A DNA stretch of 32,000 nt from Burkholderiales bacterium (GTDB lineage Bacteria; Pseudomonadota; Gammaproteobacteria; Burkholderiales; Burkholderiaceae_C): NCBI GenBank assembly GCA_016213205.1, contig JACRAZ010000064.1, positions 1 through 32,000 on the forward strand, given 5' to 3'. The translations under genes and the position numbers were made by a program. This document shows, one piece after another, positions 510 through 19,640 of this stretch. Below the pieces are notes generated by a model. It was not told where the DNA came from and did not search any database. It saw only the letters and a program-made list of their open reading frames with translations. The first letter of the stretch is position 1. The number at the start of each line of letters is the position of its first letter.

Positions 510-2681
510 TCACGACTTCAGCGACAGCAGTAGCTTGAGCGCCTGAGCCGCGATCGAGTAGAAGAAATCCTTGATCGCTTGCCACCAGCCGCCCTGATCC
601 TCGGCCAACTGGTCGTGGGCGCGCTTGTTGAGGTAGGCGCGGATCGCATCTGCATCGGCTTTGGTCAGCAGATGCCCGAAGCCAACCATTCCGGTTTCCT
701 TGTACACGCCTTCGAGCACGATCTTGTCAAAGGCGGTTTGGGTGGCAGGTGACATGTAGCGCAGATCAGGCAGCATGCTGCCGCTGATCGCCGTGGCTCC
801 GTGGCAGGCGGCGCAGAAGGTGTGGTACTGCTCGTAGCCCTTCTTCAGCGTGGCCTCGTTGGCGGTCTGTGGCTGGGGTGAGAGCTGCCGTGCCGGGCGC
901 TGGAAGGGCGGCAACTGCGCCGTGCCTCCCAGCTTGTAGACCAGCAGGCGGCCACCCGGCCCCTTCTGCGCGAACTGCGCCGCGCCGCCCGCGGCCAGCG
1001 CGAATGCGCCGCCCCAGCCGGCCATGACGGCGACGTACTGTTCGCCATCGACCTGGTAGGTGACCGGCGGCGCGATGATGCCGGTCTGGGTGGGTGTCTC
1101 CCAGAGGGGTGCGCCGCTGTCGGCGCGGTAGGCCGCCAAGCGCCCGTCGGCGGTGCCCTGGAACACCAGGTTGCCTGCGGTGGACAGCACGCCGCCGTTC
1201 CAGGGGCCGGTGTGCTGCACGCGCCAGACTTCCTTCTGCCGCACCGGATCCCAGGCGCTCAGGTGGCCTTTGGCGAGCAGCGCCGCGAGTTTGCGGTCGA
1301 GCACCTGCGGCATGCCTGAGGGCGGCATCGCGGCGACCAGATCAACGCCGGTGTTCCAGGCGTTGGGAACGTACTTGAAACTTTCCGGGTTCTTGTAGAG
1401 CAGCGGCAGGTCCAGCGCCGGGATGTACACCAGGCCCGCCTTGGGGTTGAAGGCCATCGGATGCCAGTTGTGGCCGCCGTAGGGCGAGGGGAAGGTGAGC
1501 TTTTCCTTCTTCCGGTACTGTTCGTCGGCGGTCTCCACCGGCCGGCCGGTGGCCGGGTCGATGTGCGTGGCCCAGTTGACCTTGACGTAGGGCTGCGCCG
1601 AGATGAACTTGCCCGTGGCACGGTCGAGCACGTAGAAAAAGCCGTTCTTGGGCGCCTGCATCAGCACTTTGCGCACTTGGCCGCCGATCGACAGGTCGGC
1701 CAGCATGATGTGCTGGGTGGCCGTGTAGTCCCAGGTCTCGCCGGGCGTGGTCTGGTAGTGCCAGACGTACTCCCCGCTGTCGGGCCTGAGCGCGACGATC
1801 GACGACAGGTAGAGGTTGTCGCCGCCGCCGGGGCTGCGGATGTCGCGGTTCCACGGCGAGCCGTTGCCCACACCAATGTAGAGCAGGTCGAGTTCGGCGT
1901 CGTAGGCCATCGAGTCCCAGACGGTGCCGCCGCCGCCGATCTTCCACCACTCCCCCTTCCAGGTCTGTGCCGCTTTGGTGAGGGCTGCCGAGGCCTGGGG
2001 CTTGGAAGGATCGCCCGGCACGGTATAGAAGCGCCACGCCTGCTGGCCGGTGGCCGCGTCGTAGGCGCTGACGTAGCCGCGCACTCCGAACTCGGCACCG
2101 CCGTTGCCGATCAGGACCTTGCCCTTGACCACGCGCGGTGCGCCGGTGATGGTGTAGGGCTTGTCGCGGTCGATCGTGTTGACCTCCCACGCCGGCTTGC
2201 CGCTGGCAGCGTCGAGCGCCACCAGACGCCCGTCGAGCGTGCCGACGAAGACCTTGCCCTGGTAGACCGCCACGCCGCGGTTAACCACGTCGCAGCAGGC
2301 CTTGACGCCCCAGGACTTGGGGACCTGCGGGTCGTACATCCAGAGCTGCTTGCCGGTGCGCGCATCGATCGCCCACACCACACTCCACGAACCGGTGGTG
2401 TAAATCACGCCATCGACGACGATGGGCGTGGCCTCCAGACCGCGCGTGGTGTTGGTGTCGAAGTACCAGGCCAGGCCGAGGTTCCTGACGTTGCCGTCGT
2501 TGATCTTGGTGAGCGTGCTGAAGCGCTGTTCGTCGTAGGTGCGGCCGTACGAGAGCCAGTTCTGCGGCTCCTTGTCGGCGTTTACGATGCGCGCGGTGTC
2601 GAGGGCCTGCTGGGCGCCTGCGCCAGCGGCGATGAAGGCGGATGAGGCCAAGGCCAGCGCGGGGGCGAGGATCGGTTTCAC
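510..2681 (-). CDS. Quinohemoprotein (type II) PQQ-dependent alcohol dehydrogenase with a C-terminal cytochrome c domain
   Basis: 723-aa ORF with a GTG start at 2681 and AAGGAGA 9 nt upstream.
- Signal peptide: [23 protein letters not shown].
- PQQ-ADH propeller hallmarks: vicinal Cys pair ([12 protein letters not shown]), repeated W-containing blades, catalytic region [14 protein letters not shown].
- C-terminal heme c motif FCAACHG with a downstream Met (ETGMVGFG).
- The length matches quinohemoprotein ADHs of Comamonas/Pseudomonas. Confidence 0.93.
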
Positions 2682-2749: not shown

Positions 2750-3337
2750 TCAGCGCGCCGCGGTCTTGTCGCGCGGGCGGGTCAGGCGCAGCAGCAGCCA
2801 GACGAAGGCGACCACGATCATCGGCACCGGCAGGTACTTCCAGTAGTTGCGCACGCCCACGCGGAACGGGAACACCGAGTGCTCGACCTTGCCGCTGGCC
2901 GGATCCCTGGCGCTGAGCACGCCCACGTACCAGCCAGCCTCGGTGAACCGGTGTTCCAGCGTGAGCGTCCCGCGCGGGTAGCTGCGCGCCGGCAACTCGG
3001 CCAGCAGATTCGAAGCTTGCCCGGCAGCATCGCCCAGATCAGCCAGCGTCGTCTTGGCACCGCGCCCCGAGGTCTCGCGCAGGATGCGGAACTCGACGCT
3101 GCGCTCGCGCAGCACCGGCTGGATGAAGTCCACCACGAAGACCGCGCGCCCGACCTCCGGAATGTCCTCGCAGAACTCCTGGCTCGAGCGGAAGTCCGGC
3201 TGGTAGCCGGCAAAGTGCGCTTGCGCCTCGCCGATGCGCAACACGCACTTGTCGTCCTCCATGGCCATGCCGCCGTGTGCGAGGGCAGCCCCGCAGGCCA
3301 GCGCCGCCAGCGGCGCAGCGATCCAGCGCGCGCTCAT
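2750..3337 (-). CDS. Secreted, C-terminally membrane-anchored protein of unknown function in the pmoD/amoD position. Possibly PmoD-like; homology not established.
   Basis: - The start at 3337 is chosen over 3469. The ATG overlaps the xmoB stop as ATGA (ttcggATGAgc), and a signal peptide follows immediately ([20 protein letters not shown]|HGGMAM).
- 195 aa, with a single C-terminal TM helix ([18 protein letters not shown]).
- The architecture (signal peptide + ~150-aa periplasmic domain + C-terminal TM) and the position after subunit B match PmoD/AmoD.
- I cannot align it to PmoD from memory. Confidence 0.6.
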
Positions 3338-4572
3338 CCGAACAGCGGAATCATCGGGCCGCTGATCTCCACCGCCCAGCGCTTTCCCTGCGCGTCGTAG
3401 AAGAACAGCATGCCGGCGATCACCGCGTCGGGCGAGGTAATCATCGTCGTCATGCGCTGCGTTTCCCACATCGCGTCGTCGGCGTAGATCACGATCTTGC
3501 GCGTCTGGCCGGGCGCGATGGTGGCGTCGCCGTCCACGCGCAGCGCGTCCGGTGCGACCAGATCGTCCGGGTCGCGCGGCTGGGCCTGGAGCACCTTGGC
3601 GTTGACGAAGCGCAGGTTGCCGCTGTTGAACTCGCCCACCGACACCGGGCTCTGGCCGTTGTTGGTGACGTTGAGCTCGATGCGGAAACTGCGGCCCGGA
3701 ATGCGGTAGCGCGCGTCATCCATGCGGACCGTCAGCGGCGAAGGCTCACGCTGCAACTGCGCGGTCTCGATCTTGCCGGTCTGCGGCGGCGTGTTGACCG
3801 GCCAGCGTTCCTGCGCCCAGAAGTAGCCTCCCAGCACCAGCAGCAGCGTGACGGTGAGCGTCAGCATCGCCGCCTTGCGGTCGCGCCCGGTGATCATCTC
3901 GTCGGCGCGGTCATTGCCCAGTTCGACGACGCGGCGGAAGCGGGGCAGCACCAGGGGCGCCTTGCTCAGCCAGTAGCCGAACCAGGCCAGGCCGATCATC
4001 GCCCACAGCGCCGACCATCCCGCAGCATTGGCCAGGCCGTAGCTCTCCAGGTCGATCTCCTGGCCCGTGAGCGTCTTCACGGTGTTGCTGAAGTTCGCCG
4101 CGCTGCCGCCAACTTCGACCCAGATGCCGGGGCCGATGATCGGGCCGGCATCCTTGACGTTGAGCAAGGGGTGGACGTGGTAGCGCCCGGGCGTGCGGGC
4201 CTTCAGTGTGATCACGAAGTCGTACTGCACGCCGGGCTTGAACGAACTGCTGCGGATGCCCGGCGTGCCGTTGATGCGGTTGTCCAGCCGCACAAAGGCC
4301 GGTCCAGGCACGCCGATGTTCAGGAACGCGGTCTGCTGCGCCGAGGGCACGTGCTCTGGCCAGGCATGCGACGGGACGAAGCTGCCCTTGACCACCAGGG
4401 TCTGCCCCACGTCGAGCCGGCGTGCTGACACATCGACATCGAACCAGTGCAGCGTGCGCATGCGAAGCACCGGCTGCTGCGCCTTTTCGCCATGGGCCCA
4501 GGCAGGGCTCGTGAACAGCGTCATGCTGGCCAACCAGCACAGTGCGATCATACGAAACGTTCTTGCGAGCAT
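3334..4572 (-). CDS. pmoB: Copper membrane monooxygenase subunit B (PmoB/AmoB family)
   Basis: 412 aa with the start at ATG 4572, 2 nt after the subunit A stop. The longer ORF to 5145 overlaps subunit A and is rejected.
- Signal peptide ...SPAWA, then HGEKAQQPVLRMRTLHW (compare M. capsulatus PmoB HGEKSQAAFMRMRTIHW).
- HxH copper motif: GRYHVHPLLNV.
- Conserved blocks: GPIIGPG and TLTGQEIDLE, two central TM helices, LLFFYDAQG and a C-terminal PMIPLFG. Confidence 0.96.
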   Translation of the reverse strand: MLARTFRMIALCWLASMTLFTSPAWAHGEKAQQPVLRMRTLHWFDVDVSARRLDVGQTLVVKGSFVPSHAWPEHVPSAQQTAFLNIGVPGPAFVRLDNRINGTPGIRSSSFKPGVQYDFVITLKARTPGRYHVHPLLNVKDAGPIIGPGIWVEVGGSAANFSNTVKTLTGQEIDLESYGLANAAGWSALWAMIGLAWFGYWLSKAPLVLPRFRRVVELGNDRADEMITGRDRKAAMLTLTVTLLLVLGGYFWAQERWPVNTPPQTGKIETAQLQREPSPLTVRMDDARYRIPGRSFRIELNVTNNGQSPVSVGEFNSGNLRFVNAKVLQAQPRDPDDLVAPDALRVDGDATIAPGQTRKIVIYADDAMWETQRMTTMITSPDAVIAGMLFFYDAQGKRWAVEISGPMIPLFG

Positions 4573-4574
4573 GT

Positions 4575-5327
4575 TCACACCGCCTTGCGAAGCCAACCCG
4601 CCTTGACGCCGAGCGAGCCGATCCAGACCCACAGCCAATAGGAAAGGATGGTCAGGAAGCCCGCGAACACCGCCGTCACCGGTGTGACTGCTTCGCCGAA
4701 TGTGCGCAGGGTGCTCCGCTCGATGATGCGCACGTACTCCGGCATCGCCGTGCGTACGTACTGGAAGCCCATGGTGTCGGCCACGGTCAGCAGCGTGCCG
4801 TGCAGTTCCACAGGCACCATGAAGGGCGCCAGGATCGGCCAGTTGAGCGGATAGATCAGCAGGCCCATCAGGAAGCCGCCGAACACCCCGGTGAAGAAGA
4901 AGCTTCGCGTCAGCAAGAGGATGCAGTCGATCATCAGCCCCAGTGCGATGTACGTCGATGGAAAAACCATGTTCATCGGGAAGTTCGCGAAGCCATGGAA
5001 GTTCAGGTAGCGGCTGAGCCAGGCCGCCCCGGTGAGCGCCAGGATGCTGAGCGTCGCCCCCACTGGAATGCGCAGCAGCCGCCAGAAGGCGTAGCCGAAC
5101 ACGCCTGACAAGGTCGACAGGGCCAGCGGCGTGACCAGAGGCCACCAGCGACGATCGCGCCAGTCGATCCAGTAGTCCCAGTCACCGACCAGCAGTGCGA
5201 ACTCGAAACTGAACACTGCGCCGAGCAGCAGGACAAACAGCGGGATGATGACCCAGTCGAGTTGGGCATCGACGCGCCGGGCCTCCGCGGGGGTCAGCGG
5301 CTGGTCGGGATGGGGGAGGGCGGTCAT
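4575..5327 (-). CDS. pmoA: Copper membrane monooxygenase subunit A (PmoA/AmoA family)
   Basis: 250 aa, with GGAGA 6 nt upstream of the ATG. Full-length resemblance to PmoA:
- GDWDYWIDWRDRRWWP (compare GDWDFWSDWKDRRLW)
- YPLNWPILAPFMVPVE
- YVRTAMPEYVRIIERSTLRTFG (compare [22 protein letters not shown]). Confidence 0.96.
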   Translation of the reverse strand: MTALPHPDQPLTPAEARRVDAQLDWVIIPLFVLLLGAVFSFEFALLVGDWDYWIDWRDRRWWPLVTPLALSTLSGVFGYAFWRLLRIPVGATLSILALTGAAWLSRYLNFHGFANFPMNMVFPSTYIALGLMIDCILLLTRSFFFTGVFGGFLMGLLIYPLNWPILAPFMVPVELHGTLLTVADTMGFQYVRTAMPEYVRIIERSTLRTFGEAVTPVTAVFAGFLTILSYWLWVWIGSLGVKAGWLRKAV

Positions 5328-5411: not shown

Positions 5412-6206
5412 TCAGGCAGCCTGTGCGGCGCCTTGCGCGGGGCGCGTCAGTTCCATCACGCGCGTCGCGATCTGCGTCAGCAGACCACCGGCGGCGAACG
5501 ACGACCAGCCCAGCATGACGAAGCCCCAGTGGATCGGCGCGGCGAACAGTTCCTCGGCGTAGAAGAAGGTGTGGCCCCACTCGTTGAAGCCGAGGTTGGG
5601 CATGATCATGAACGCGCCCGCGACGATGATCGCGAAGGGCAGCGAGATGCGTCCGCCGAAGTACGGAATGCGCGTGTGCGCGTACGCGAACGAGATGAAT
5701 CCCCACATCACCAGCACCGGCACGCCGAAGTAAAACAGCCCGATGTGCGTGGGGGTGAAGTCGGTGTCGCGAATCGTCACTTGGTGCCACGCGGCATCGG
5801 ATTCCGTATAGATCGACCCGGTGATGTAGAAGATGGTGCCAAACACCAGCAGCATCGACGAAACCACGAACAGCCGTCGCAGTTCCTCGCGGCGCCCGAC
5901 GCGGCTGAAGTCGCGCTCACGCGTGCGCCAAAGCCACACCAGGACGCCAGTGCCGCCGCCGATGACCAGTACCAACTGCGTGTAGAGCAGACGCATCCAG
6001 TAGGCCTGGAACTCGCCGCTGAAGTAATCAAGCCCGTGCGTGAACGCCGTGGTCTCCTGGTAGATGCGGTAGACGAGAAAGACGAAGCACAGCGCCACCA
6101 GGCCTGCGAACACGCGCAGCCACGGCGCGCCGGTGCTCGCCTTGGATGTCGGTACCGCCATCCGCTGCATGCTGCCGGCGCCGGCCGGCCGGGGAATCGC
6201 GCTCAT
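5412..6206 (-). CDS. pmoC: Copper membrane monooxygenase subunit C (PmoC/AmoC family)
   Basis: 264 aa from ATG 6206. The start was chosen because AAGGAGAccgtATG gives a strong SD. The ORF extends to 6260 but has no SD there.
- FSGEFQAYWMRLLYTQ (compare FAPEFETYWMNFLYTE).
- WHQVTIRDTDFTPTH...AYAHTR carries the Asp/His/His ligand block.
- NEWGHTFFYAEELFAAPIHWGF carries the Asn/His/His block (compare [22 protein letters not shown]). Confidence 0.95.
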   Translation of the reverse strand: MSAIPRPAGAGSMQRMAVPTSKASTGAPWLRVFAGLVALCFVFLVYRIYQETTAFTHGLDYFSGEFQAYWMRLLYTQLVLVIGGGTGVLVWLWRTRERDFSRVGRREELRRLFVVSSMLLVFGTIFYITGSIYTESDAAWHQVTIRDTDFTPTHIGLFYFGVPVLVMWGFISFAYAHTRIPYFGGRISLPFAIIVAGAFMIMPNLGFNEWGHTFFYAEELFAAPIHWGFVMLGWSSFAAGGLLTQIATRVMELTRPAQGAAQAA

Positions 6207-6362: not shown

Positions 6363-9074
6363 TCAGGCGTGGAGCCACCCGCGGGCGCGGGCTTCGCGCA
6401 GGGCCCCGGTGCGGTTGCGCACGCCCAGCTTGGCGTACAGGTTGTGCAGATGCCACTTGACGGTGCCTTCGGTCAGCACCAGGCGCATGGCCACGTCGTT
6501 GTTCGACATGCCCTCGGCCAACAAGATCAGGATTTCCATCTCGCGCTCGCTGGCGCGCGCGTCGTCAGCCGCCGGGGCGCCGGCCGATGACGCGCTGGGC
6601 TCCAGGGCGCGCACGATCTGTCCTGCGTGGTTGGCGGCGGAGGTGCCGGCACCGGGCGAGCCAGGGGCGATGGCTGCTCGCAGCAGGGGCACCAGGGCCG
6701 GGCCCTCGTCGACGTACAGACGCTGGTAGCCATGCGCAGCGGCCAGCGCCAGGCTGTCCATCATGGCCAGCGTGGCGGCCGGCTCGTCGCCGGCTGCGTG
6801 CAGCGCGCGTGCGCGCAGCATCTGCATCTCGGCCTGCTTGTAGTTCTGGCCGTTGGCGCGGGCGCGCGCATGGCCGGCGTCGGCCCATCGCAGCGCCGCC
6901 TCGACGCGGCCGTGCGCAAGGTCCAGCCGTGCCCACAGCCGCTCGGCCTTGTCCAGATGCAGGGCCGAACGCGCGCTCTCCGGCTGCAGGCCCACATCGG
7001 CGGCGATGCGCCAGGCGCCGTCGGCGTCACCCGCGTGCAGCAGCAGCAGCGCGCGTTCGGCGGCCATCGTCAGTTGCAGGCGCACGAAGCCGCGCGCGCT
7101 GCCGATGCGTTCGCCCTCGGCGGCCGCGTCGAGCGCGGCCGAGAGGTCGCCGCGCGCTGCCTGCAGGCGCGCCGCGGCGACGTAGCCGGCCACCATCGCA
7201 TCGACCACGCCCTGGTGGGGCAGCAGGGGCAGCGCGGCTTCGGCCTCGTTCGTCGCCTCGGTGAGCAGACCTCGTTCGTACAGCAGCAGGGCGTGCATCG
7301 CGCGCAGCATGGCCACCAGCCCGGTGCGGTCGGCCGCGGGGTCGGCGGGCAGCGCAGCGGCGATCTCGGCCCGCGCATCGCGGTGCCGCCCGGCCTTGAG
7401 CAGGGCCACCGCGCTCACCACGCGAACCCACATCAGCCCGTAGGGCAGGCGCGCACGCTCGAAGGCGAACTGCGCCTCACGAAGTGCCTGCTCGGCCTGG
7501 GCGAAGCGCGAATGGCACTTGTGCGCAAAGCCGAGCACTGAAAACACCGCGCCGCGGTGGAAGGGCTCCTCGTCCGCTGCCTGCTCGAGCCAGCGCTGCG
7601 CGTGGGTCTGCGCCGCGTCGGCATCGTCGCGCAGCGCCGCCATCACCGCACGCACCGACAAGCCGGCGTGGGCCAGAGGCACGCTGTCGGGGCCGGCCTC
7701 GCGCTCGGCGCGGGCCAGGCGGCCCTCGGCTTCGACCCAGCGGCGCAGGAACACCAGCGCCCAGGCCGCGAACAATTGCAGCAGCGCATCGGCGCTGGTG
7801 TCGCGCCTCTCGATCTGCGCCAGCAGTTCGAGATAGGTCTCGTGCCGCCCTTCGGCCTGCACGAGCTGGCGCGCGTAGCCGCACAGGTGAGCGCGCGACT
7901 GCGCCGCGTCGTCGCCGGCCAGTGACAGGCGGATCGCGCGGTAGGGGTCACCATGGGCGTGCCACCAGTGTGCCGCCTCGCGGCGCAGTTGGTTGGCGCC
8001 GCGCCCTTCGCCGGCCAGGCGTGCCAGCGCGCTCTCGGCCAGCAGCGGATGCAGTGCGTAGAGCACCTCGTCGTCGACGCGCGCGCGCGCCTGCGCGATG
8101 CCCAGCGTCCCGGCTTCGGCCAGGGCCTCGCGCGCGCGCGGCACGCCCAGTTGCTCGAGCAGTCTGGGCGTGAACTCGCCCAGCGCGGCCATCGTGAAAA
8201 GTGCTTCCTGGCGTTCGGCCGGTAGGCCCTTGATGAAGCGTTGGTGGATGAAGTCGTTGACCAGCAGATCGGTGCCGGCCACCGGAGACGCATCGCCGCC
8301 GGCCAGGGTCAGCTGAACCAGTGCGGGCCAACCCTCGGTCAGCCCCAGCAGGCGCTGCACCGCAGCGGTGTCGCGCGGGCGCTTCAAGCGCAGTGACAGC
8401 TCGAGCACTTCGTCGGCGCCGAAGCGCAGCTCGTGCTGGGTGATCCAGCGAACGCGGCCGCGCGCGGTGAGCGAGGCGAGGTTCAGGTTGGCGGCGTCGC
8501 GCGTGGTCAGCACCCAGCGCACATGGTCCGGCGTTGCGTGCAACAGGTGGTTGAGCGTGTCCAGGCTGGCCGCGCCGCACAACTCGTGCACGTCGTCGAG
8601 AAAGAGCGTGCGCGGCTTCGGGTCGCGGCGCATCGCGTCGAGAACGGCCAAGGCGCTGGTCTCGGGCGTGACCATGGCGCTGAACGTGCCCGAACCTCCG
8701 GCCGGCATCGGCCGGTCCAGCGCGGCCAGCAGCGACCGCTCGAAGTGGGCCGGGTCGCGCCATGCTGCGTCCAGTGCGAGCCACGCCGAGGCGCCATTGG
8801 CCGGGCTGCCTTCGCGAAACCAACTCGCGGCAAGGGTCGTCTTGCCGAAGCCCAGCGGCGCGGCGACGACGACGATGCGCTCGCCCGGGGCCGGCAAGCT
8901 CAGGTGTCGGCGCGCCACCGTGGCGGCGGCGTCGCGCGGCGCCGTCCACCGGTCAGGCGGGGGAGATTCCTCGTGCAGACCGATAGCCGCCGACGACACG
9001 CGGCGCCGGGTGTTCCTGGTGGTCTTGGGGCGGCTCATCAGCGTCACGCAGGCGGTTCGCATTTCAAGCGACAA
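6363..9074 (-). CDS. Large ATP-binding LuxR-family regulator (LAL / MalT / AlkS type)
   Basis: 903-aa ORF.
- N-terminal NTPase with Walker A (VVAAPLGFGKTTLA) and Walker B-like (LFLDDVHEL).
- Long helical/TPR-like middle region.
- C-terminal LuxR HTH: REMEILILLAEGMSNNDVAMRLVLTEGTVKWHLHNLYAKLGVRNRTGAL.
- The start is uncertain (TTG 9074, ATG 9062 or ATG 9038) and none has a clear SD. Confidence 0.9.
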   Translation of the reverse strand: MSLEMRTACVTLMSRPKTTRNTRRRVSSAAIGLHEESPPPDRWTAPRDAAATVARRHLSLPAPGERIVVVAAPLGFGKTTLAASWFREGSPANGASAWLALDAAWRDPAHFERSLLAALDRPMPAGGSGTFSAMVTPETSALAVLDAMRRDPKPRTLFLDDVHELCGAASLDTLNHLLHATPDHVRWVLTTRDAANLNLASLTARGRVRWITQHELRFGADEVLELSLRLKRPRDTAAVQRLLGLTEGWPALVQLTLAGGDASPVAGTDLLVNDFIHQRFIKGLPAERQEALFTMAALGEFTPRLLEQLGVPRAREALAEAGTLGIAQARARVDDEVLYALHPLLAESALARLAGEGRGANQLRREAAHWWHAHGDPYRAIRLSLAGDDAAQSRAHLCGYARQLVQAEGRHETYLELLAQIERRDTSADALLQLFAAWALVFLRRWVEAEGRLARAEREAGPDSVPLAHAGLSVRAVMAALRDDADAAQTHAQRWLEQAADEEPFHRGAVFSVLGFAHKCHSRFAQAEQALREAQFAFERARLPYGLMWVRVVSAVALLKAGRHRDARAEIAAALPADPAADRTGLVAMLRAMHALLLYERGLLTEATNEAEAALPLLPHQGVVDAMVAGYVAAARLQAARGDLSAALDAAAEGERIGSARGFVRLQLTMAAERALLLLHAGDADGAWRIAADVGLQPESARSALHLDKAERLWARLDLAHGRVEAALRWADAGHARARANGQNYKQAEMQMLRARALHAAGDEPAATLAMMDSLALAAAHGYQRLYVDEGPALVPLLRAAIAPGSPGAGTSAANHAGQIVRALEPSASSAGAPAADDARASEREMEILILLAEGMSNNDVAMRLVLTEGTVKWHLHNLYAKLGVRNRTGALREARARGWLHA

Positions 9075-9277: not shown

Positions 9278-11335
9278 CTAGTGAACGTGGTCGTCCGGCG
9301 GCGGCATCAGCCGCGGCTCTTCGCGCAACAGCTCGCCTTGCCGAAGCAGGAACTGCGCATCGGCCCACTCGGGCGACTCCGACGGCAGCCAGCGCGAGCG
9401 CGCGTAGCCGAAACGGTCGATCAGGAACTCCATGTGATGCGGCGATTCGTCGGCGATGGTCTTGCCGGCATCGGCCAGGGTTCGGCGCAGCAGCAGGTAG
9501 GCGGTGGCGGCGTCAGCCGCGCCATCGACCGGCGCGATGAAGGGCAGCGCGGTGCTTGCCGTCGGCGACCCGGGCAAGGGCACGGCGACGACCTGCACGC
9601 TGCGCTCGGCCAGGCGGGCTTGCCACTTGGCCAACCGCAGCAACCTGCGCTGCGACGCGGGCAAGGTGTAGAAGACGAGCAATACGACCTGGCCGCGCAG
9701 ATCCTTCAACGAACCGGGACGGCCCTGCGCATCGGTGAAGTCGAAGTTCGGCGCGCCCAGCCAGGGCCGGCCGGGCACCACGCTTGGCGTGAGGATGCGC
9801 GCTTGGAAACCCGAGGAAAACAGGCGCAGGAAGTTGACGATGTCCCAGCGGTCCTCGGCCGACGTGGTGTGCGCGAAGCCGGGCATTGGCGTGTCAGGCT
9901 TGCCGTCGGTGAGCCAGTGAAAGATGTCGCCCCCGGTGTGCAAGGCGGTGTGCGGCTCGGCCAGATCTGTCGGCGGCTTGGCGAGCCTGGCGGCCAGCGG
10001 GCCGTCGCCGCGCGCTGCCGCGCCGTGGCAGTCGGCGCAGTGGCGGCGATACAGCGCGATGCCGCGTGTGATCGATACAGCGTCGTAGGGCACCTCACTG
10101 CGAAGATAGGTGCGCGGCCAGGCCGGCACCGACAGGGCCCAGATCAGCGCACAGGCCGAGGCCAGCGCCAAGGCCGCGCCGGCGCAGGCGCGCCACGGCG
10201 CCGCGGGCCGGCGCATGACCACGGCCGTCCAGTCGCGGGCGCCGAGCGCCAGCGCCACCACCAGGCCTGCCACGCCCAGCCACAACCACAGCGCGACGCC
10301 GGGTTGGCCCCAGGTGGCGGCCAGCGATACGCGAAACGGCAGCGGCCACACCTTCACGTCATGCGCCGCAGGGATGGTGCCGGCCGCATTCGCCGCTGCC
10401 CACAGCAGGAAGGCCACCACCAGCGCTTCGGTCCGCACGCTGCGGTGCGCGCCTTGCCACGGCGCGGCGTCGCGGTTGTTCAGTGCCGGCACCCAGCGCC
10501 AGCGTACGGCGGCAGCCAGCCAAAGCACCGGTAGCAGCAGCGCCATCTTCAGCAGCACCCAGCCGCCGAAGCGGGTGGACAGCAGCGGCGCGACAAAACC
10601 CTCGATCACGGTCGAGGCGCCTGCCACCCAATCGTCGGCGCGCGCCGGCCACTCAGTGGGCGCGCCCAGCAGCAGATAGCTCATCGCCACGCCGCTGGCG
10701 ACGACGGTCGCCACGCCGAGCGTGGCCAAGCCGGAGAAGCGCCGCAGCAGGTCAGCCATCCACTGCCGGTAAAGGGCGTCAGTACCCGCGGCGGCAGCGC
10801 GCGCCGAGCCGAACGCCAGCCAGGGGAGGGCGCCGGCCCACACTCCGGCGGCCAGCAGGTGGGCCGCCGCCGCAGTGAGCGCCATTTCGGTGGGGTCGAC
10901 CGCCGCGCCGTGGCCCGACCAGGCCGCCACGCACAGAACGAAGGCCGCCAGCGCCCAGGCCGCGAGCGCTTCGGCGCGCAGGTGCGGCGCCGCTCGGCGC
11001 CGCCACAACAGCAGGCCGAGCAGCAGCACAGCCGCTGCCAGACGCATCTGCCAGACGGCGCCGAAGCGCGTGCGCTCGATCACGTGGCGCCACTCGGCCC
11101 ATTCCCAGGCCGCTGCGGGCCGGCCGCTCACGGCCGCCGCCTGGAGCCCCAGCGCAGCGAACGACAACACGATCCCTGCAGCGACCAGGGCGGCGCTGGC
11201 TCTCCACAGCTGGGCACGCCACCGCGCGGCCGGCTCGCCGCCACCGTGCCCACCGATCACGAGCAGGGTCTGAGCGCCGAGCACGGTGCAGGCGCACAGG
11301 GCTGACGCCCAGCGAACGTCGGTCGTGAAGTCCAC
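9278..11335 (-). CDS. copD: CopD-family copper membrane protein fused to a class I cytochrome c and a Sco/thioredoxin-like domain lacking the CxxxC motif
   Basis: 685 aa.
- About 390 aa of polytopic membrane domain, following CopC by 9 nt (typical copCD pairing).
- Then RRHCADCHG...TPMPGF (heme c CxxCH plus an axial Met).
- Then FDFTDAQGRPGSLKDLRGQVVLLVFYTLPASQRRL...HHMEFLIDRFGYARSRW. This follows the Sco1/SenC-thioredoxin layout, but the Cys pair is replaced by LPAS. Confidence 0.85.
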   Translation of the reverse strand: MDFTTDVRWASALCACTVLGAQTLLVIGGHGGGEPAARWRAQLWRASAALVAAGIVLSFAALGLQAAAVSGRPAAAWEWAEWRHVIERTRFGAVWQMRLAAAVLLLGLLLWRRRAAPHLRAEALAAWALAAFVLCVAAWSGHGAAVDPTEMALTAAAAHLLAAGVWAGALPWLAFGSARAAAAGTDALYRQWMADLLRRFSGLATLGVATVVASGVAMSYLLLGAPTEWPARADDWVAGASTVIEGFVAPLLSTRFGGWVLLKMALLLPVLWLAAAVRWRWVPALNNRDAAPWQGAHRSVRTEALVVAFLLWAAANAAGTIPAAHDVKVWPLPFRVSLAATWGQPGVALWLWLGVAGLVVALALGARDWTAVVMRRPAAPWRACAGAALALASACALIWALSVPAWPRTYLRSEVPYDAVSITRGIALYRRHCADCHGAAARGDGPLAARLAKPPTDLAEPHTALHTGGDIFHWLTDGKPDTPMPGFAHTTSAEDRWDIVNFLRLFSSGFQARILTPSVVPGRPWLGAPNFDFTDAQGRPGSLKDLRGQVVLLVFYTLPASQRRLLRLAKWQARLAERSVQVVAVPLPGSPTASTALPFIAPVDGAADAATAYLLLRRTLADAGKTIADESPHHMEFLIDRFGYARSRWLPSESPEWADAQFLLRQGELLREEPRLMPPPDDHVH

Positions 11336-11344
11336 CAGGGCAAG

Positions 11345-11716
11345 TCAGGGCTTGAGGGTGAACGTGTAGCCGTAGTCCACCGTGTGGCCATCGACTGAGA
11401 GAACGCGGTACTTCACCGTGTACTGCCCGGGCGCGAGCGCTGGCAGTTCCAGCACCAGCAGCTTGGGGTCGGCCGCATCCACGGTTGCCCTGGGTGCGTC
11501 AATCGGTTTGGCGTCGCCGTCGCGCTGGATGCTGATCGATGCATAGGCCGGCTCCAGGCGTTCGTTGAACCACAGCCGGATCTGCCGGGGGGCCTTGCTC
11601 AGCACCGCGCGGCGCGGCGGCTCCGACTTGACCAGGGCGGCGTGAGCGCGCGCCTGCCCGCCGGCGACCACTGCGGGCAGCGCGGCCAAGCTCTTGGCAA
11701 AGACACGCCGCCTCAT
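11345..11716 (-). CDS. copC: CopC periplasmic copper-binding protein, Cu(II)-site-only type
   Basis: 123 aa.
- Signal peptide ...GQARA|HAALVKSEP gives an N-terminal His in the mature protein.
- Conserved LSVDGHTV and the CopC-length beta-sandwich pattern.
- No Met anywhere in the mature sequence, so there is no Met-rich Cu(I) site.
- The start overlaps the upstream gene stop as ATGA. Confidence 0.9.
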   Translation of the reverse strand: MRRRVFAKSLAALPAVVAGGQARAHAALVKSEPPRRAVLSKAPRQIRLWFNERLEPAYASISIQRDGDAKPIDAPRATVDAADPKLLVLELPALAPGQYTVKYRVLSVDGHTVDYGYTFTLKP

Positions 11717-12322: not shown

Positions 12323-13660
12323 TCAGAACGAGAAGCTGGCCCCGACGCCGATCGCCCACATTTTGGCCTCGCCCTTGAAGCGGGCAACCGGAGCGCCCAG
12401 CGCGGCGGCAGCGGTGCCGTCGGTGCGCTCGACCGAATTCTTCATCGCGTAGGCGCCATAGACATCCACCCGCATCGACTTGTCGAACTGGTAGCCCAGG
12501 CCCGAACTGACCGTGTGCTTCATCACGACCGGCACCAGCGTGGTCTGGACGATGCGCACCACGTCGCGCGCCACCTCGCCCAGACCACCGGCTTCAGCAG
12601 CAGTCCCCAGGGGAAAGGTGCCGACGCCACGCAGGCCGCCGAAGGTGTTGTTGGGTGTCTTTCGCAGAATGTCGGACGAGTAGTGGTAGCCGGCGCGCAG
12701 CTTCCACAGGCCTGTCGTGTACTGCGCGCCCAGGGCCAACAGCCACTGGTCTCGCCACACGTCGCGGTAAGTGCTGGCCCTGGACCAGCCTTTCCAGACC
12801 AGATCGGCCTCCAGCAGCCAGGGCGAGTGATTGCCTGTGCTGGCCAGGCCCAGGATGACCTCCTCGGGCTGCTCGATCGTGAGGTTCTGGTAGCCGATGC
12901 CGGCCACGCTGGTGTGGACGATATTTTCGAACTTGTAGCGGACCTTGGACTTGTACGCCGCACCGGCGGTCAGATCGCCACCCAGCGCATAGGTGGCGCC
13001 CACGGAAAACCCGCTGCCGAAGGCGTGCGTGCTGCTCGTGGTGCCCCCGAAGTCGCCCAGGGGGATGCCGATGGACGGCCCGGCCGTGCCGAGCTGGCCC
13101 AGGCCGAATCCGGCGGTCAGCGCGGCGCCGACGCTCAGCCGGGGTGTCACCCGGTGCGCGTAGGCCAGGTTGGCATTGAACGAAACCAGCTCGACCACCA
13201 GCGGCAGGCTCGCCGCGCCCGCCACTCCGATCAGCGACACCGGCTGCGCGCGGAAATCGGCCCCCAGTCCCGCGTCGACCTCGATCCCCAAGCCCAGGAC
13301 TCCATTGGGTGACAGCTCGATGGCCATCCCCACGTCGGGCAGGATGTAGTCGTTCGTTCCCGAGGTGCTGATATTCGTTCCCGCGGCGCTGCTCTGCGTG
13401 TTCTTAGAGCTCGCGCCGAGATAGGACGCGCCGACGTTGACGTTGCGCCCCCTGAAGCCGGCCAGGGAAGCCGGATTGCCGAACACGGCCGCGGAGGCCT
13501 CCTGCGGCATCGTGTAGGCCGCGCCGCCCATGCCGCCCGCCGCAGCCTTGTAGCCGAGGTTGGAGTCGGAGCCGACGGCGGTGGCATGGGCCGCGCCGCA
13601 CAGCGCGAGCAGCCCCCCAGCCAGCAGCCACTGTTTGCGCATCACGTCGTTAGCCTTCAT
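12323..13660 (-). CDS. Outer-membrane beta-barrel channel of the FadL/TodX/OmpP1 type for hydrophobic compounds
   Basis: 445 aa, with a strong SD (AGGAGAcagagATG).
- Signal peptide ...LCGAAHA.
- N-terminal hatch-like segment GGMGGAAYTMPQEASAAVFGNPASLAGF (the NPA-x-L motif typical of FadL).
- Alternating beta-strand pattern and a C-terminal ...VGASFSF with terminal Phe.
- The family assignment is by motif and size only. Confidence 0.65.
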   Translation of the reverse strand: MKANDVMRKQWLLAGGLLALCGAAHATAVGSDSNLGYKAAAGGMGGAAYTMPQEASAAVFGNPASLAGFRGRNVNVGASYLGASSKNTQSSAAGTNISTSGTNDYILPDVGMAIELSPNGVLGLGIEVDAGLGADFRAQPVSLIGVAGAASLPLVVELVSFNANLAYAHRVTPRLSVGAALTAGFGLGQLGTAGPSIGIPLGDFGGTTSSTHAFGSGFSVGATYALGGDLTAGAAYKSKVRYKFENIVHTSVAGIGYQNLTIEQPEEVILGLASTGNHSPWLLEADLVWKGWSRASTYRDVWRDQWLLALGAQYTTGLWKLRAGYHYSSDILRKTPNNTFGGLRGVGTFPLGTAAEAGGLGEVARDVVRIVQTTLVPVVMKHTVSSGLGYQFDKSMRVDVYGAYAMKNSVERTDGTAAAALGAPVARFKGEAKMWAIGVGASFSF

Positions 13661-13695
13661 CTCTGTCTCCTGGTCAAGTTCGTGGGTTCATCCAA

Positions 13696-13709
13696 AACAC
13701 GATCGTGTT
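13696..13709. promoter_or_regulatory. Perfect 14-bp palindrome AACACGATCGTGTT upstream of the FadL-like gene. Candidate operator.
   Basis: Read directly. It lies 36-49 bp upstream of the ATG at 13660, within the 207-bp gap after the ALDH stop. Confidence 0.3.
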
Positions 13710-13867
13710 GGCCTGGCAGCGCTGCGAAGCCACGGGTGCCGAACAGCGCGACGGGACCGGTTTCGGGCAACTGCGGTCTGAGGGTTTGGCACAGCCCGAG
13801 CAGCGGAGCACGGTGAACCGTCGGCCCAGGCCAGCCCTTGAACCGCCCCTCATGGCTGCGCTGGGGA

Positions 13868-15364
13868 TCAGTTGCCCTTGAGCGGACGCGGTGGCGAGTA
13901 GTCTGCGGTGCGGTTGCTGCGCAGGGATGCGTCCCCCTGGCCCAGCCAGAGCTTCATCACCAGCCGCTGCACGACGTTGCCGTAGGGCGGATAGAACAGC
14001 CCCACCGGGAAGAAGCGGTGGCGCTTGAAGACCGTCCGGGCGTGCGACAGCTCGCGAAAGCCCTCCTCGCCGTGGTAGCTGCCCATGCCCGAGTTGCCCA
14101 CGCCTCCGAACGGCGCATCGTGGTTGAGCACGTGCCAACCCCAGTCGTTGATCGTCACGCCGCCGGAATGCGTGCGCTGCAGCACCTGCGCCCGCTGTCC
14201 TGCATCGTGGCCGAAGCAGTACAAGGCCAGTGGGCGCGGGCCCGCATTGACCAGGCCAATCGCTTCGTCCAGCGTGTCGTAGGGCAGCACCGGCAGGATC
14301 GGGCCGAAGATCTCTTCCTTCATCACCCGCATGTCCGGTCGCACGCCAGTCACGACGTGCAGCGGCACCTGGCGCCCCGCCCCGGCCGCAGCGCAGGCCT
14401 CGACCGTGGCCCCCTTGGCGCGGGCGTCGTCAAGCAGGGCCTGGATGCGCGCGGCATGGCGTTCGTTGACCACTGCGGTGTAGTCGTGGTTGCCGGCCAC
14501 GCTGCCGCCGTAGAGGGCCGCGAAGCTCTCCTTGACGGCCGAGACAAATTCTCCGACCTGCTTGCGCGGCACCAGGGCGTAGTCGGGCGCGATGCAGATC
14601 TGGCCGCAGTTGGCGGCCTTGCCATGCGTGATGCGGCGCGCAGCGTCGTGCGGCGAGGCGCCGTGCAGCAGAACCGCGGGCGACTTGCCGCCCAGTTCGA
14701 GCGTCACCGGCGTCAGGTTCTCGGCAGCGGTGCGCATCACGATACGCCCCACCGCCGGAGAACCGGTGAAGACGATGTGGTTGAAGGGCAGGGCGGTGAA
14801 GGCGTTCGGGTCGAGCAGTTCCTCGCCGATGACCGCCACCTGGTGCTCCGGAAACACCTCGCCCAGCATGCGGCGCATCACCGCATTGGTGGCTGGCGTG
14901 AGCTCCGACATCTTGATCATCACCCGGTTGCCGGCAGCCATGGCCGCGGCCAGCGGACCGAGCGTGAGATAGACGGGGAAGTTCCAGGGCACGATCACAC
15001 CGACCACGCCCTTGGGCTGGTAGTGCACGCGCAGGCTGTTGCTGAGGAATAGTAGTTCGGTACTGCGCCGGCTCGGTCTCATCCAGCGCGACAGATGCGA
15101 CAGCGCGTGATTGATCTCCAGCGTCGAGCCGAGCACGTCGAGCATCTTCGACTCGGCTGGCGAGCGGAAGCTGAAATCCTGGCTCATGGCCTCGGCTAGC
15201 ACGTCCTGGTAGCGGTGGAGCTGCGCCTTGAGTTTGCGCAGGTCTTCCCTTCGGCGCGACGCGCTCGGGTAGGGATCGCGGCCGAAAGCTGCCTGCTGGC
15301 TGGAAAGAACGGCGTTCAGATGCGCGGTCATGGCCGCTTGAGGATCGGCCAGTCGGTCGTTCAT
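13868..15364 (-). CDS. NAD(P)+-dependent aldehyde dehydrogenase (ALDH3 / coniferyl-aldehyde dehydrogenase-like)
   Basis: 498 aa from ATG 15364 (GGAGAcagcgATG). The ORF extension to 15538 was rejected because it would overlap the divergent AraC gene start.
- Motifs: VPWNFP, FTGSPAVGR, ELGGKSP (catalytic Glu), ANCGQICIAPDY (catalytic Cys), EEIFGPILP. Confidence 0.93.
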   Translation of the reverse strand: MNDRLADPQAAMTAHLNAVLSSQQAAFGRDPYPSASRRREDLRKLKAQLHRYQDVLAEAMSQDFSFRSPAESKMLDVLGSTLEINHALSHLSRWMRPSRRSTELLFLSNSLRVHYQPKGVVGVIVPWNFPVYLTLGPLAAAMAAGNRVMIKMSELTPATNAVMRRMLGEVFPEHQVAVIGEELLDPNAFTALPFNHIVFTGSPAVGRIVMRTAAENLTPVTLELGGKSPAVLLHGASPHDAARRITHGKAANCGQICIAPDYALVPRKQVGEFVSAVKESFAALYGGSVAGNHDYTAVVNERHAARIQALLDDARAKGATVEACAAAGAGRQVPLHVVTGVRPDMRVMKEEIFGPILPVLPYDTLDEAIGLVNAGPRPLALYCFGHDAGQRAQVLQRTHSGGVTINDWGWHVLNHDAPFGGVGNSGMGSYHGEEGFRELSHARTVFKRHRFFPVGLFYPPYGNVVQRLVMKLWLGQGDASLRSNRTADYSPPRPLKGN

Positions 15365-15527
15365 CGCTGTCTCCGGTGTCGTTTGAACGGCACGCTGGTC
15401 AAGAGCCATGCGCCGTCCTGCTATGAACCGAGTCTGGGGGCCTGGCGTGGTGTCGGCGAGGTTGAAATCTGCCAGGTGGGGGTGAAAATGCGCCAAACTC
15501 TCGTAATCCCCAGGGCAGGCAGCAATC

Positions 15528-16613
15528 ATGACGCGCATCCCGGCACAGCTGTTCGCGAGCTACGAAGGCAGCCGGGATGGCGCGGCGCACAGCCTGCTAG
15601 GCCTTCGGGCACTGATGGCCGAGCTGGCCGATCAAGGCGTGAGCGCAGACCAGGCATTGCGCGGCACCGGCATCGATCCCTGCCAAATGGACGATCCCGC
15701 CTTGCTCATTTCGCCGAACCAGAAGATCGCCGTCTTCGGCAACGCGGGGCGACTGGCGAAGCGCCCCGACCTCGGCCTGCGCGCCGGCGCCCGGCAGCGA
15801 CTGAGCGATTTCGGCGTCTTCGGCTACGCGCTGGCCTCGAGCGCGACCTTCGGGGACGCGCTGGCCCTGGGCATGAAGCACCTCAGGTTGGCTGGGCCCG
15901 TGCTGGAGAAGCGCTTTTGCCTCGTTGGCGATACCGCGTTATTTGAAGGCCGGGACGTGCTGGCGCTGGGGCCGGTGTTGCCACTGGCCACCGAGTTCTG
16001 GTTCAGCTCGATCCTCAAGCTCATCACCTGCGTCATCGAAACGCCCTTTCCCTCGCGGCGACTGCTGCTGCCATACCCCCGGCCGGCCCACGCCGCAGCC
16101 TACGAGCGCATGTTCGGCTGCCCGGCGCAGTTCGACGCCGGCGTCGTCCAGTGGCAGTTCGACGCTGCGGTGCTGCAGGCACCCTGCCCCGAGGCCAACC
16201 CGATCACCGCAGGGATGTGCACCCAGTTCTGCGAACGCATGCTCGACAGCTTGCCACACGAATCGGCGCTCGCTCGCAGCGTGCGCAACGCCTGCCTGGG
16301 CAGCCGCGGCAAGTTCCCGAGCGCGCGCGAAATGGCCGAGCGGCTCGGCTTGTCGGTGCGCACGCTGCATCGGCGACTGACCGAGGAAGGCCAGCACTAC
16401 CAGGGCATCGTCGATGAGGTGCGCAGCGCCTTGGCCATCGAGTTCCTGCGCAACACCACGCTGTCGGTCGAAGAAATCGCCTGCCGCGTCGGCTTCACCG
16501 AAAGCTCGAACTTCCGCAAGGCATTCAGGCGCTGGACCGGGCAGTCACCGGCGCGCTTTCGCGCACCGCAAGGCAATGCGCGCGCGGCGGCCGCACTGGC
16601 GAGGGCGCATTGA
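15528..16613 (+). CDS. AraC-family transcriptional regulator with an N-terminal AraC_binding_2-like ligand domain
   Basis: 361 aa, divergent from the ALDH gene. C-terminal double HTH: SAREMAERLGLSVRTLHRRLTEEGQHYQ...IEFLRNTTLSVEEIACRVGFTESSNFRKAFRRWTGQSPARFR. Confidence 0.9.
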   Translation: MTRIPAQLFASYEGSRDGAAHSLLGLRALMAELADQGVSADQALRGTGIDPCQMDDPALLISPNQKIAVFGNAGRLAKRPDLGLRAGARQRLSDFGVFGYALASSATFGDALALGMKHLRLAGPVLEKRFCLVGDTALFEGRDVLALGPVLPLATEFWFSSILKLITCVIETPFPSRRLLLPYPRPAHAAAYERMFGCPAQFDAGVVQWQFDAAVLQAPCPEANPITAGMCTQFCERMLDSLPHESALARSVRNACLGSRGKFPSAREMAERLGLSVRTLHRRLTEEGQHYQGIVDEVRSALAIEFLRNTTLSVEEIACRVGFTESSNFRKAFRRWTGQSPARFRAPQGNARAAAALARAH

Positions 16614-16742
16614 GTCCATTGAGCTTTCCGCAAAGCATCTCGGTCAGCGATGACGGCTGGGCATGTTGGCATGGCGCACCCCAGGGAGTGGGTGTCGTCA
16701 TCAATGTCTCGAATCAGGACAAGGGAAGGAAGGGCCCATCGA

Positions 16743-18638: not shown

Positions 18639-19640
18639 ATGCCGGATCCAATTTCCGCCGAGGCCCTCTCGAGGGTGTGCGTCGTTGACGACGATGCCAC
18701 CGTTCTTGCTGCGCTGGTTGCCATCTTGCAGCCCGCATTCGATGTGCGCGTCGCCCGCAGCGGACGCGATGGTTTGCGCTTGATCCGACGCGACCCTCCG
18801 GACCTGGTCCTGCTGGACGTGAACCTGCCTGACGTGTCGGGCATGGCCGTGTGCCGCAGGCTCAAGGACGATCCACTGACCGAGGCCGTACCTGTCGTGT
18901 TCCTTACGTCTCACGCCGACGAGAAGACTGAGGTCGAAGGTCTGGACGCTGGCGCAGCGGACTTCATTGCCAAGCCTCCTCGGGGCCCGGCAGTGTTGGC
19001 ACGCATCCGCAACCTGGTGCGAATGAAACTGCTGGCGGAGCGCCTGATGCGAGAGGCCCAGACGGATGCGCTGACTTCGCTTGCCAATCGCCGCCGTTTC
19101 ACGGCGGCGTTACGCGAGGAGCTCCTGCGCGCCAGGAGGCAAGAGCGACCTTTGTCGGTCCTCATGGTCGATGTCGACCATTTCAAGGCCTACAACGACC
19201 ACTATGGGCACCTCAGCGGCGACGGCGCACTGCGTCAGGTGGGGCAGGTCCTTCGCGGCAGCTTGCGCCGCCCGGGCGATCTGGCCGGGCGCCTGGGCGG
19301 CGAGGAGTTTGCTGTCCTGCTGCCCGAGACGGATGAAGGCGGTGCCTGGCGGGTGGCCCAGCGCATGCTGAGCGCCATGGCGGATGCAGCCATCCCCCAT
19401 GCGGCTTCCGCGACCGCCGCGTGCCTGTCCGTCAGCATCGGAATGGCGACGTATCGGCCGCCGCCGCGGCCTGCCGAACCCGCTCCGGATACCGATGCTG
19501 CGGCCGACAGGGACGATTCGGCCAAGGATCTGCTGGCACGTGCCGATGCCGCGCTCTACGCCGCCAAACACCGGGGCCGCAACCGCGCCTGCGGTGAGAC
19601 GGACGTTCAGCCCGGGCAGGCTCACCACACCACCGCGTGA
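18639..19640 (+). CDS. Response regulator-diguanylate cyclase (REC-GGDEF, PleD/WspR-like)
   Basis: 333 aa. The ATG directly abuts the upstream TAG.
- REC: VCVVDDD...LVLLDVNLPDVSG...AKP.
- GGDEF domain with an intact GGEEF.
- An RxxD I-site (RPGD) sits exactly five residues upstream of GGEEF. Confidence 0.93.
   Translation: MPDPISAEALSRVCVVDDDATVLAALVAILQPAFDVRVARSGRDGLRLIRRDPPDLVLLDVNLPDVSGMAVCRRLKDDPLTEAVPVVFLTSHADEKTEVEGLDAGAADFIAKPPRGPAVLARIRNLVRMKLLAERLMREAQTDALTSLANRRRFTAALREELLRARRQERPLSVLMVDVDHFKAYNDHYGHLSGDGALRQVGQVLRGSLRRPGDLAGRLGGEEFAVLLPETDEGGAWRVAQRMLSAMADAAIPHAASATAACLSVSIGMATYRPPPRPAEPAPDTDAAADRDDSAKDLLARADAALYAAKHRGRNRACGETDVQPGQAHHTTA

Follow-up and report, generated by a model that had tools for sequence, protein, structure and literature searches.

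The closest described relatives of the gene analyzed here are the PmoD/AmoD proteins. The criteria by which Fisher et al. (2018) defined this family are a signal peptide, a pair of invariant cysteines, a C-terminal transmembrane helix and an association with copper-dependent membrane monooxygenases (CuMMOs) (PMC6189053). Electron transfer, copper delivery and stabilization of the enzyme are candidate roles of its members in the methane, ammonia and short-chain-alkane monooxygenases. In the Methylocystis sp. Rockwell PmoD (Met49242_1452, PDB 6CPD; Cx7MxHxnC, 'AmoE-type') the CuA ligands are Cys41, Met49 and His51, and CuA is abolished by M49A or H51A. CuA formation is limited to Cx7MxHxnC proteins. 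MettrDRAFT_0370 of Methylosinus trichosporium, a Cx9HxnC protein, bound 1.40 Cu per protein and gave no CuA spectra. Another Cx9HxnC protein, Solimonas aquatica Ga0070002_104146, appears in their catalogue of PmoDs, encoded in a CuMMO operon of the layout 'cabdcd' (pmoCAB-D-copCD), with His at the position termed 'H1' (all PMC6189053). Here we analyzed a 32,000-nucleotide stretch of DNA from a Burkholderiales bacterium (GenBank assembly GCA_016213205.1, contig JACRAZ010000064.1, positions 1 to 32,000), referred to as the window. On its minus strand an open reading frame (ORF) of 195 amino acids follows the monooxygenase gene xmoB. This ORF, hereafter the target, had been left uncharacterized in a preliminary description of the DNA. 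Judged by its sequence and its predicted structure, the target is a bona fide PmoD/AmoD family member of the Cx9HxnC class in an alkane-type CuMMO operon. The window thus holds no new protein family, and the gene is an additional member of a catalogued one.

Family membership and layout of the target

A phmmer search against PDB sequences matched the target to PmoD 6CPD over residues 30-161 (E value 2.6e-16). The alignment placed Cys31, His41 and Cys56 of the target on Cys41, His51 and Cys65 of 6CPD. Two AlphaFold (AF2) models were compared with known structures (m73ba1963a474 and m4f1b80860984; predicted local distance difference test, pLDDT, of 88 and 90.2). For both models 6cpd_A, a cupredoxin-like beta-sandwich, was by far the best Foldseek match, with E values of 1.7e-12 and 8.4e-13, template modeling (TM) scores (TMt) of 0.87 and 0.86 and a root-mean-square deviation (rmsd) of 2.1-2.4 Å. 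Alignment of the target with five members of the Fisher et al. dataset by blastp gave identities of 31-39% (E from 1e-22 to 6e-34). The nearest class in this set by identity was the AmoD type (~39%), with the CuA type further away (~31%). The Solimonas protein (locus L024) is the orthologue of the target, with 48% identity and the same xmoCAB-D arrangement. The target has 147 close homologues, and 795 clusters of the family (50% identity) were found by a profile search. The family alignment to the profile comprised 270 members, and here the cysteine pair was invariant (Cys31 in 262/262 and Cys56 in 268/269 aligned members). All defining features of the family are found in the target, and its length of 195 amino acids lies within the family range of 150-250.

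The preliminary description had recognized no PmoD similarity and had suggested a non-homologous, or merely analogous, replacement of PmoD in the same operon slot. Scans against Pfam-A and NCBIfam indeed returned no family for the target, which is probably the reason for its unrelated look. The label 'uncharacterized' arose because neither collection holds a curated profile for it, and such an absence is silent on homology. The direct sequence homology to 6CPD, the structural superposition and the orthologue listed in the published PmoD dataset refute both the missing similarity and the replacement. We regard the probability of a replacement as negligible.

The target comprises the following features, all on the minus strand:

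2750 to 3337, minus strand: pmoD/amoD-family gene, 195 amino acids plus stop, Cx9HxnC class with an 'H1' histidine (phmmer, Foldseek, ORF call)
3334 to 3337, minus strand: ATGA overlap of the xmoB stop and the target start (junction sequence GGATGAGC)
3278 to 3337, minus strand: predicted Sec signal peptide, residues 1-20 (Arg4, hydrophobic core, Ala at -3 and -1; column pattern Ala/Val at -3 and Ala/Gly at -1)
3269 to 3277, minus strand: His21-Gly22-Gly23, predicted mature N-terminus, 'H1' in Supplementary Data 2 of Fisher et al. (family conservation)
2840 to 3277, minus strand: predicted periplasmic PmoD-fold beta-sandwich domain, residues 21-166 (AF2 model, 6cpd_A match, invariant columns)
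Residues of this domain, minus strand: Asp29; Cys31 at 3245-3247; His41 at 3215-3217; Cys56 at 3170-3172, in EFCEDIP (Cys56-Glu-Asp)
2780 to 2836, minus strand: predicted C-terminal transmembrane helix, residues 168-186 (Kyte-Doolittle 19-residue maximum 1.91)
2753 to 2779, minus strand: predicted basic cytoplasmic tail after the transmembrane helix

The same 195-residue ORF was called independently on four metagenome (Logan) contigs. At the junction xmoB ends in GGA-TGA and the target opens with ATG-AGC, which confirms the ATGA overlap reported before. For the genome comparison 80 loci from different species were used. The genes xmoCAB lay immediately upstream of the family gene in 54 of the 80, as they do in the window. 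A start/stop overlap of 1 or 4 nt with xmoB was present in 31 of these 54 syntenic loci. Since the overlap is kept to this extent, translational coupling appears to be a conserved trait of the Burkholderiales/Nevskiales clade. Stoichiometric co-expression had been deduced from the overlap; the conserved overlaps argue for the coupling, but a 1:1 stoichiometry is not shown by them. A GTG start 44 codons upstream, inside xmoB (3338-3469, minus strand), was considered and rejected as an extension of the target gene. The only reason why the peptide that it would add (…DDSAVR) seems conserved across loci is that the conserved C-terminus of XmoB is read there in another frame.

Signal peptide and transmembrane segment were assigned by heuristics, namely the (-3,-1) rule and Kyte-Doolittle hydropathy. 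The AF2 model places a helix at residues 170-186, within the hydrophobic C-terminal segment. The segment 168-186 and the synteny bear out the PmoD/AmoD-like layout with a single C-terminal transmembrane helix and the slot after subunit B. Likewise, the second cysteine noticed in EFCEDIP was found as Cys56. The preliminary description had further pointed to a Met-x-Met and a Cys within ten residues of the histidine. The target does carry His21, Met24, Met26, Cys31 and Cys56, but the Met-x-Met is specific to its lineage. In the family alignment 203 sequences have Val at position 24 and only 100 have Met at position 26, and the consensus at the mature start reads HGGVSMEDDxC.

The target was then set beside the individual classes of the family. 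It has the signal peptide, the fold, the two Cys and the transmembrane helix in common with the Cx9HxnC PmoDs of Solimonas aquatica (Ga0070002_104146), Methylosinus trichosporium (MettrDRAFT_0370) and Methylococcus (MCA2130) (PMC6189053). The His that follows the first Cys after nine residues and the predicted N-terminal 'H1' are also common to the target and this subclass. In contrast to these proteins, the target belongs to a Burkholderiales-type alkane-oxidizer cluster, and a pyrroloquinoline quinone (PQQ) alcohol dehydrogenase gene, not copC, lies directly downstream. The target is only ~31% identical to the MettrDRAFT_0370-like protein, for which biochemical tests exist. Rockwell PmoD resembles the target in its fold, the positions of the Cys and His ligands, the transmembrane anchor and the slot after subunit B. 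It is only ~30% identical, however, and the target has Gln39 in place of the CuA Met and HGG where proteins of the 6CPD type have EGG. AmoD (orf5) of the ammonia oxidizers (Cx8MHxnC; ~39% identity) has the AHGG mature start seen in the target, but its Met directly before the second His is replaced by Ala40.

The second tier of Foldseek matches after PmoD consisted of AA10 lytic polysaccharide monooxygenases (LPMOs), Helicobacter pylori CrdA and Leptospira 6OE6 (E ~3e-4, TM 0.35-0.56). A relationship to the LPMOs was rejected, with TM scores to AA10 of only 0.35-0.48 and an rmsd of 4-8 Å. As their TM scores are below 0.5, the LPMO matches are read as a generic beta-sandwich resemblance. The top 50 Foldseek matches contained no classical cupredoxin and no CuA domain.

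The predicted mature N-terminal histidine

According to the preliminary description, XmoB, CopC and the target would all mature with an N-terminal histidine. As a prediction this was upheld for the three proteins. The signal peptide of XmoB (...SPAWA/HGEKAQ) ends in AWA, and the predicted mature His27 (4492-4494) falls on His33 of PmoB in the alignment. This is the residue with which the deposited mature chains of PmoB and AmoB begin, and the CuB motif HxH is conserved in XmoB. For CopC (...GQARA/HAALVK) the predicted mature His25 (11642-11644) aligns with residue 1 (His) of the chain in 5ICU, the M. trichosporium CopC structure. CopC keeps the DGH Cu(II) motif and has no Met-rich Cu(I) site. 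An N-terminal His is well established for the families of both proteins.

For the target alone the (-3,-1) rule allows cleavage after residues 14, 16, 17, 18, 20, 22 and 25. The rule cannot choose among these seven sites when applied to a single sequence, and we therefore relied on family conservation. The pattern [AGST]/HGG was present in 80/80 genome loci, ~16-39 residues from the protein start. The His column was covered by 252 members of the family alignment. It contained His in 239 of them, followed by Gly in 250, with Ala at -1 in 201 and Ala or Val at -3 in 212. Upstream of this site the residues are variable and hydrophobic, and conservation begins exactly at the His. With those members of the Fisher et al. 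set that carry H1, the local alignments of the target start at its residue 20. Only the Cys pair is better conserved than the predicted N-terminal His. Comparison across the family thus lends strong support to the prediction of an N-terminal His in the mature target.

Alternatively, His21 could be internal, either by cleavage elsewhere or by lipidation at Cys15 (LAALA-C), and no amino-terminal chelate would then be available. The six other sites permitted by the (-3,-1) rule would allow this, and Cys15 (codon 3293-3295, LAALA-C-G) lies in a loose, weak lipobox-like context. However, Cys15 is confined to the target and its 90-98% identical relatives and is absent from the other aligned homologues. 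Because it is lineage-specific, a lipoprotein was rejected as the leading interpretation. The canonical lipobox is [LVI][ASTVI][GAS]C, which ALAC does not fit. Moreover, the sole family-wide small-x-small site precedes the His, where conservation starts. Fisher et al. also began one construct at the equivalent His, the primer for MettrDRAFT_0370 encoding SM-HDGVKL (PMC6189053). An internal His21 is unlikely on this evidence.

Fisher et al. record the 'H1' position only in a supplementary table (PMC6189053). Among the 860 sequences of their Supplementary Data 2, the string HGG occurs 345 times and AHGG 226 times; these are plain string counts over the whole dataset. HGG is found in the clade of the target, in AmoD of ammonia oxidizers and in at least ~40% of catalogued PmoDs. 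A natural subclade (proteins P0131, P0138, P0170, P0182, P0229 and P0268) has GGG in place of HGG and keeps the equivalents of Cys31, Asp29 and His41.

Expected copper chemistry and proposed function

The preliminary description had considered that a CuA-like purple species would indicate PmoD chemistry in the target. One could suppose that the target works as Methylocystis PmoD does, as a dimer around a mixed-valent CuA center bridged by the Cys31 thiolates that passes electrons to the monooxygenase. Fold, family and operon slot after subunit B are the same as for 6CPD, and Cys31 and His41 are conserved at the positions of the CuA ligands Cys41 and His51. The third ligand is different. Met at Cys+8 is absent, with Gln39 of the target at the position of Met49 and Arg, Lys or Gln there in the clade; His41 at Cys+10 is present. 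Since Gln39 replaces the ligand Met49, CuA chemistry of the PmoD type is unlikely in the target. The loss of CuA in M49A, its confinement to Cx7MxHxnC proteins and the tested Cx9HxnC protein, which bound Cu without CuA features, all argue in the same direction (PMC6189053). We therefore consider an electron carrier with CuA very improbable and do not expect the purple species.

Rather, the target is likely a membrane-tethered periplasmic copper-handling or copper-loading accessory of the alkane-type CuMMO that acts with CopC/CopD, not a CuA carrier. Sec would export the protein, and cleavage after Ala20 would make His21 residue 1. The C-terminal helix would anchor it in the inner membrane with the domain in the periplasm. 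Copper would then be held at the N-terminal face, where the conserved polar residues cluster: His21, His41, Cys31/Cys56 and the acidic residues Asp29, Glu57 and Asp58 are candidate ligands. Together with CopC/CopD, the target may supply or maintain the copper of the monooxygenase. Deletion of pmoD in M. trichosporium caused a growth defect that depended on copper (PMC6189053). In a study in Methylomonas sp. DH-1, a non-CuA PmoD (Met to Ala) was co-expressed with particulate methane monooxygenase (pMMO) to test coupled acetol production. The study gives acetone-to-acetol conversion in this strain as not previously reported, and its title states an acetol boost.

Alternatively, the target could be a monooxygenase subunit with a role in structure or assembly, with His, Cys and the acidic residues serving folding or contacts and not metal binding. 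The disulfide between the cysteines in the PmoD crystal would suit such a subunit, and the tight translational coupling with xmoB fits a complex partner. On the other hand, copper binding in vitro was seen with each PmoD class that was assayed, and the phenotype of the pmoD deletion depended on copper (PMC6189053). Orphan paralogs adjoin other cuproenzymes. As to a complex, cryo-electron microscopy maps of pMMO or ammonia monooxygenase contain no density assigned to PmoD, which was counted on the side of a subunit. We give a purely structural function little credence and prefer the copper-handling accessory.

How the accessory would hold copper was considered by analogy. CopC (C0-1 type, 5ICU), the CuB site of PmoB, PCuAC and the AA10 LPMOs are secreted or periplasmic proteins with a predicted N-terminal His after AxA, like the target. 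A histidine brace, in which His21 coordinates Cu through its amine and its imidazole, is plausible. The near-invariant His at +1 speaks for it, as does the example set by PmoB and CopC, which the same cluster encodes. So do the conserved Asp and second His, as Asp29 and His41, conserved nearby in sequence, recall the His1/Asp/His Cu(II) site of CopC. The histidine-brace proteins are, however, not homologous to the target in sequence. The target gave no Pfam or NCBIfam match to CopC, and no CopC chain was among its PDB sequence matches. Its N-terminal arm is also Gly-rich and modeled with low confidence, and is not part of a rigid core.

In the 2018 study each construct had a Ser-Met from the vector added to its N-terminus (PMC6189053). 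A brace could not form in vitro because Ser-Met before residue 1 blocked the amine. The only in vitro work on the Cx9HxnC class was done on proteins of this kind, with two additional residues masking the amine. We tentatively propose that the HGG brace is the physiological Cu(II) site of most PmoD/AmoD proteins and that Ser-Met masked it in the published biochemistry, although we would put the odds somewhat against it. A search of the open-access literature found no paper tying PmoD or AmoD to a histidine brace. If the proposal is true, the proteins of the family would be tethered to the membrane and, like CopC, would carry Cu(II), here on a flexible arm, to load or repair the copper sites of CuMMOs. 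The CuA center of alpha-proteobacterial PmoD, with Glu for His, would then be the exception and not the rule.

Several points weigh against a copper-handling role centered on His21. The first 10 mature residues have a mean pLDDT of 55, residues 19-22 fall below 50 in the other model, and the arm is Gly-rich. Because this arm is modeled with low confidence, the models give no packing of His21 against His41 or Cys31. Taken by itself, the cleavage rule leaves the seven sites listed above. Gly-Gly-Gly takes the place of His-Gly-Gly in a small subclade, and CuA-type PmoDs have Glu at the H1 position (EGG) (PMC6189053), so that His1 is dispensable for fold and family. The Cys pair is disulfide-linked in the 6CPD crystal (PMC6189053), which makes a ligand role of these cysteines in vivo uncertain. 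For the target and its clade, the binding of copper, the site of cleavage and the role are all inferred.

The Burkholderiales and Nevskiales operons of the alkane type carry a tightly coupled, non-CuA PmoD. Its conserved, predicted N-terminal His may be a copper ligand that earlier biochemistry overlooked, a well-supported hypothesis that would be relevant to the AmoD of nitrifiers as well.

Genomic neighborhood

The genes around the target that were annotated in the operon and its copper and alkane neighborhood are the following:

5412 to 6206, minus strand: xmoC, 264 amino acids (Pfam AmoC 1.3e-72; gene call on a metagenome contig also 264 amino acids)
4575 to 5327, minus strand: xmoA, 250 amino acids (Pfam AMO 2e-78; gene call on metagenome contigs)
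3334 to 4572, minus strand: xmoB, 412 amino acids (Pfam Monooxygenase_B 9e-124; PDB 3rgb_A 5.6e-109; gene call on metagenome contigs)
510 to 2681, minus strand: PQQ-dependent alcohol dehydrogenase whose C-terminal domain is a cytochrome c (Pfam PQQ 1.6e-80, Cytochrome_CBB3; TIGR03075 2.2e-208)
11345 to 11716, minus strand: copC, 123 amino acids (PDB 5icu_A, E=3.7e-15)
9278 to 11335, minus strand: copD fusion with cytochrome c and AhpC/TSA-like (thioredoxin-fold) domains (Pfam CopD 2.2e-10, Cytochrom_C 2.1e-10, AhpC-TSA 8.5e-07)
6363 to 9074, minus strand: MalT/LuxR-type regulator upstream of xmoC (Pfam TPR_MalT 2.5e-35, GerE 9.5e-16; kept in locus L001)

The PQQ alcohol dehydrogenase gene directly downstream of the target occupies the same position in loci of Rhodoferax and Polaromonas. 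In ~20 loci of the genome comparison copC was directly downstream of the family gene. Next to CopC in the window, the CopD fusion consists of three parts, a membrane domain, a cytochrome c (CADCH) and an AhpC/TSA-like domain. This composition suggests a redox-coupled module for copper import or reduction. In the region 12323-16613 the copper genes are flanked by genes for an outer-membrane hydrocarbon channel of the FadL/TodX type, an aldehyde dehydrogenase and a regulator of the AraC type. Like the copper genes, the channel and aldehyde dehydrogenase genes lie on the minus strand, upstream of xmoCAB. Together with the PQQ alcohol dehydrogenase, the flanking genes would complete an alkane-to-acid route, and the gene content of the cluster is the set expected for short-chain alkane oxidation. 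A contig with 97-100% protein identity to the window is labeled as a metagenome-assembled genome of 'uncultured Bordetella sp.'; the cluster is 98% identical there.

Two loci contained a PmoD-family gene in other surroundings. Locus L052 (5950-8311) has no CuMMO neighbor, and the gene adjoins a multicopper oxidase. In locus L064 (2261-8347) it lies beside COX1/COX3/COX4 of a heme-copper oxidase, a YtkA-like protein and a di-heme MauG/CCP. The family may thus serve copper enzymes beyond CuMMOs, and a general copper-handling role fits because these CuMMO-less copies adjoin other cuproenzymes.

On the plus strand of the window, positions 16650-24787 carry a run of signaling genes. Their products are a hybrid histidine kinase that has two receiver domains, a protein of the receiver-GGDEF type and a CHASE/PAS hybrid kinase of 1716 amino acids.

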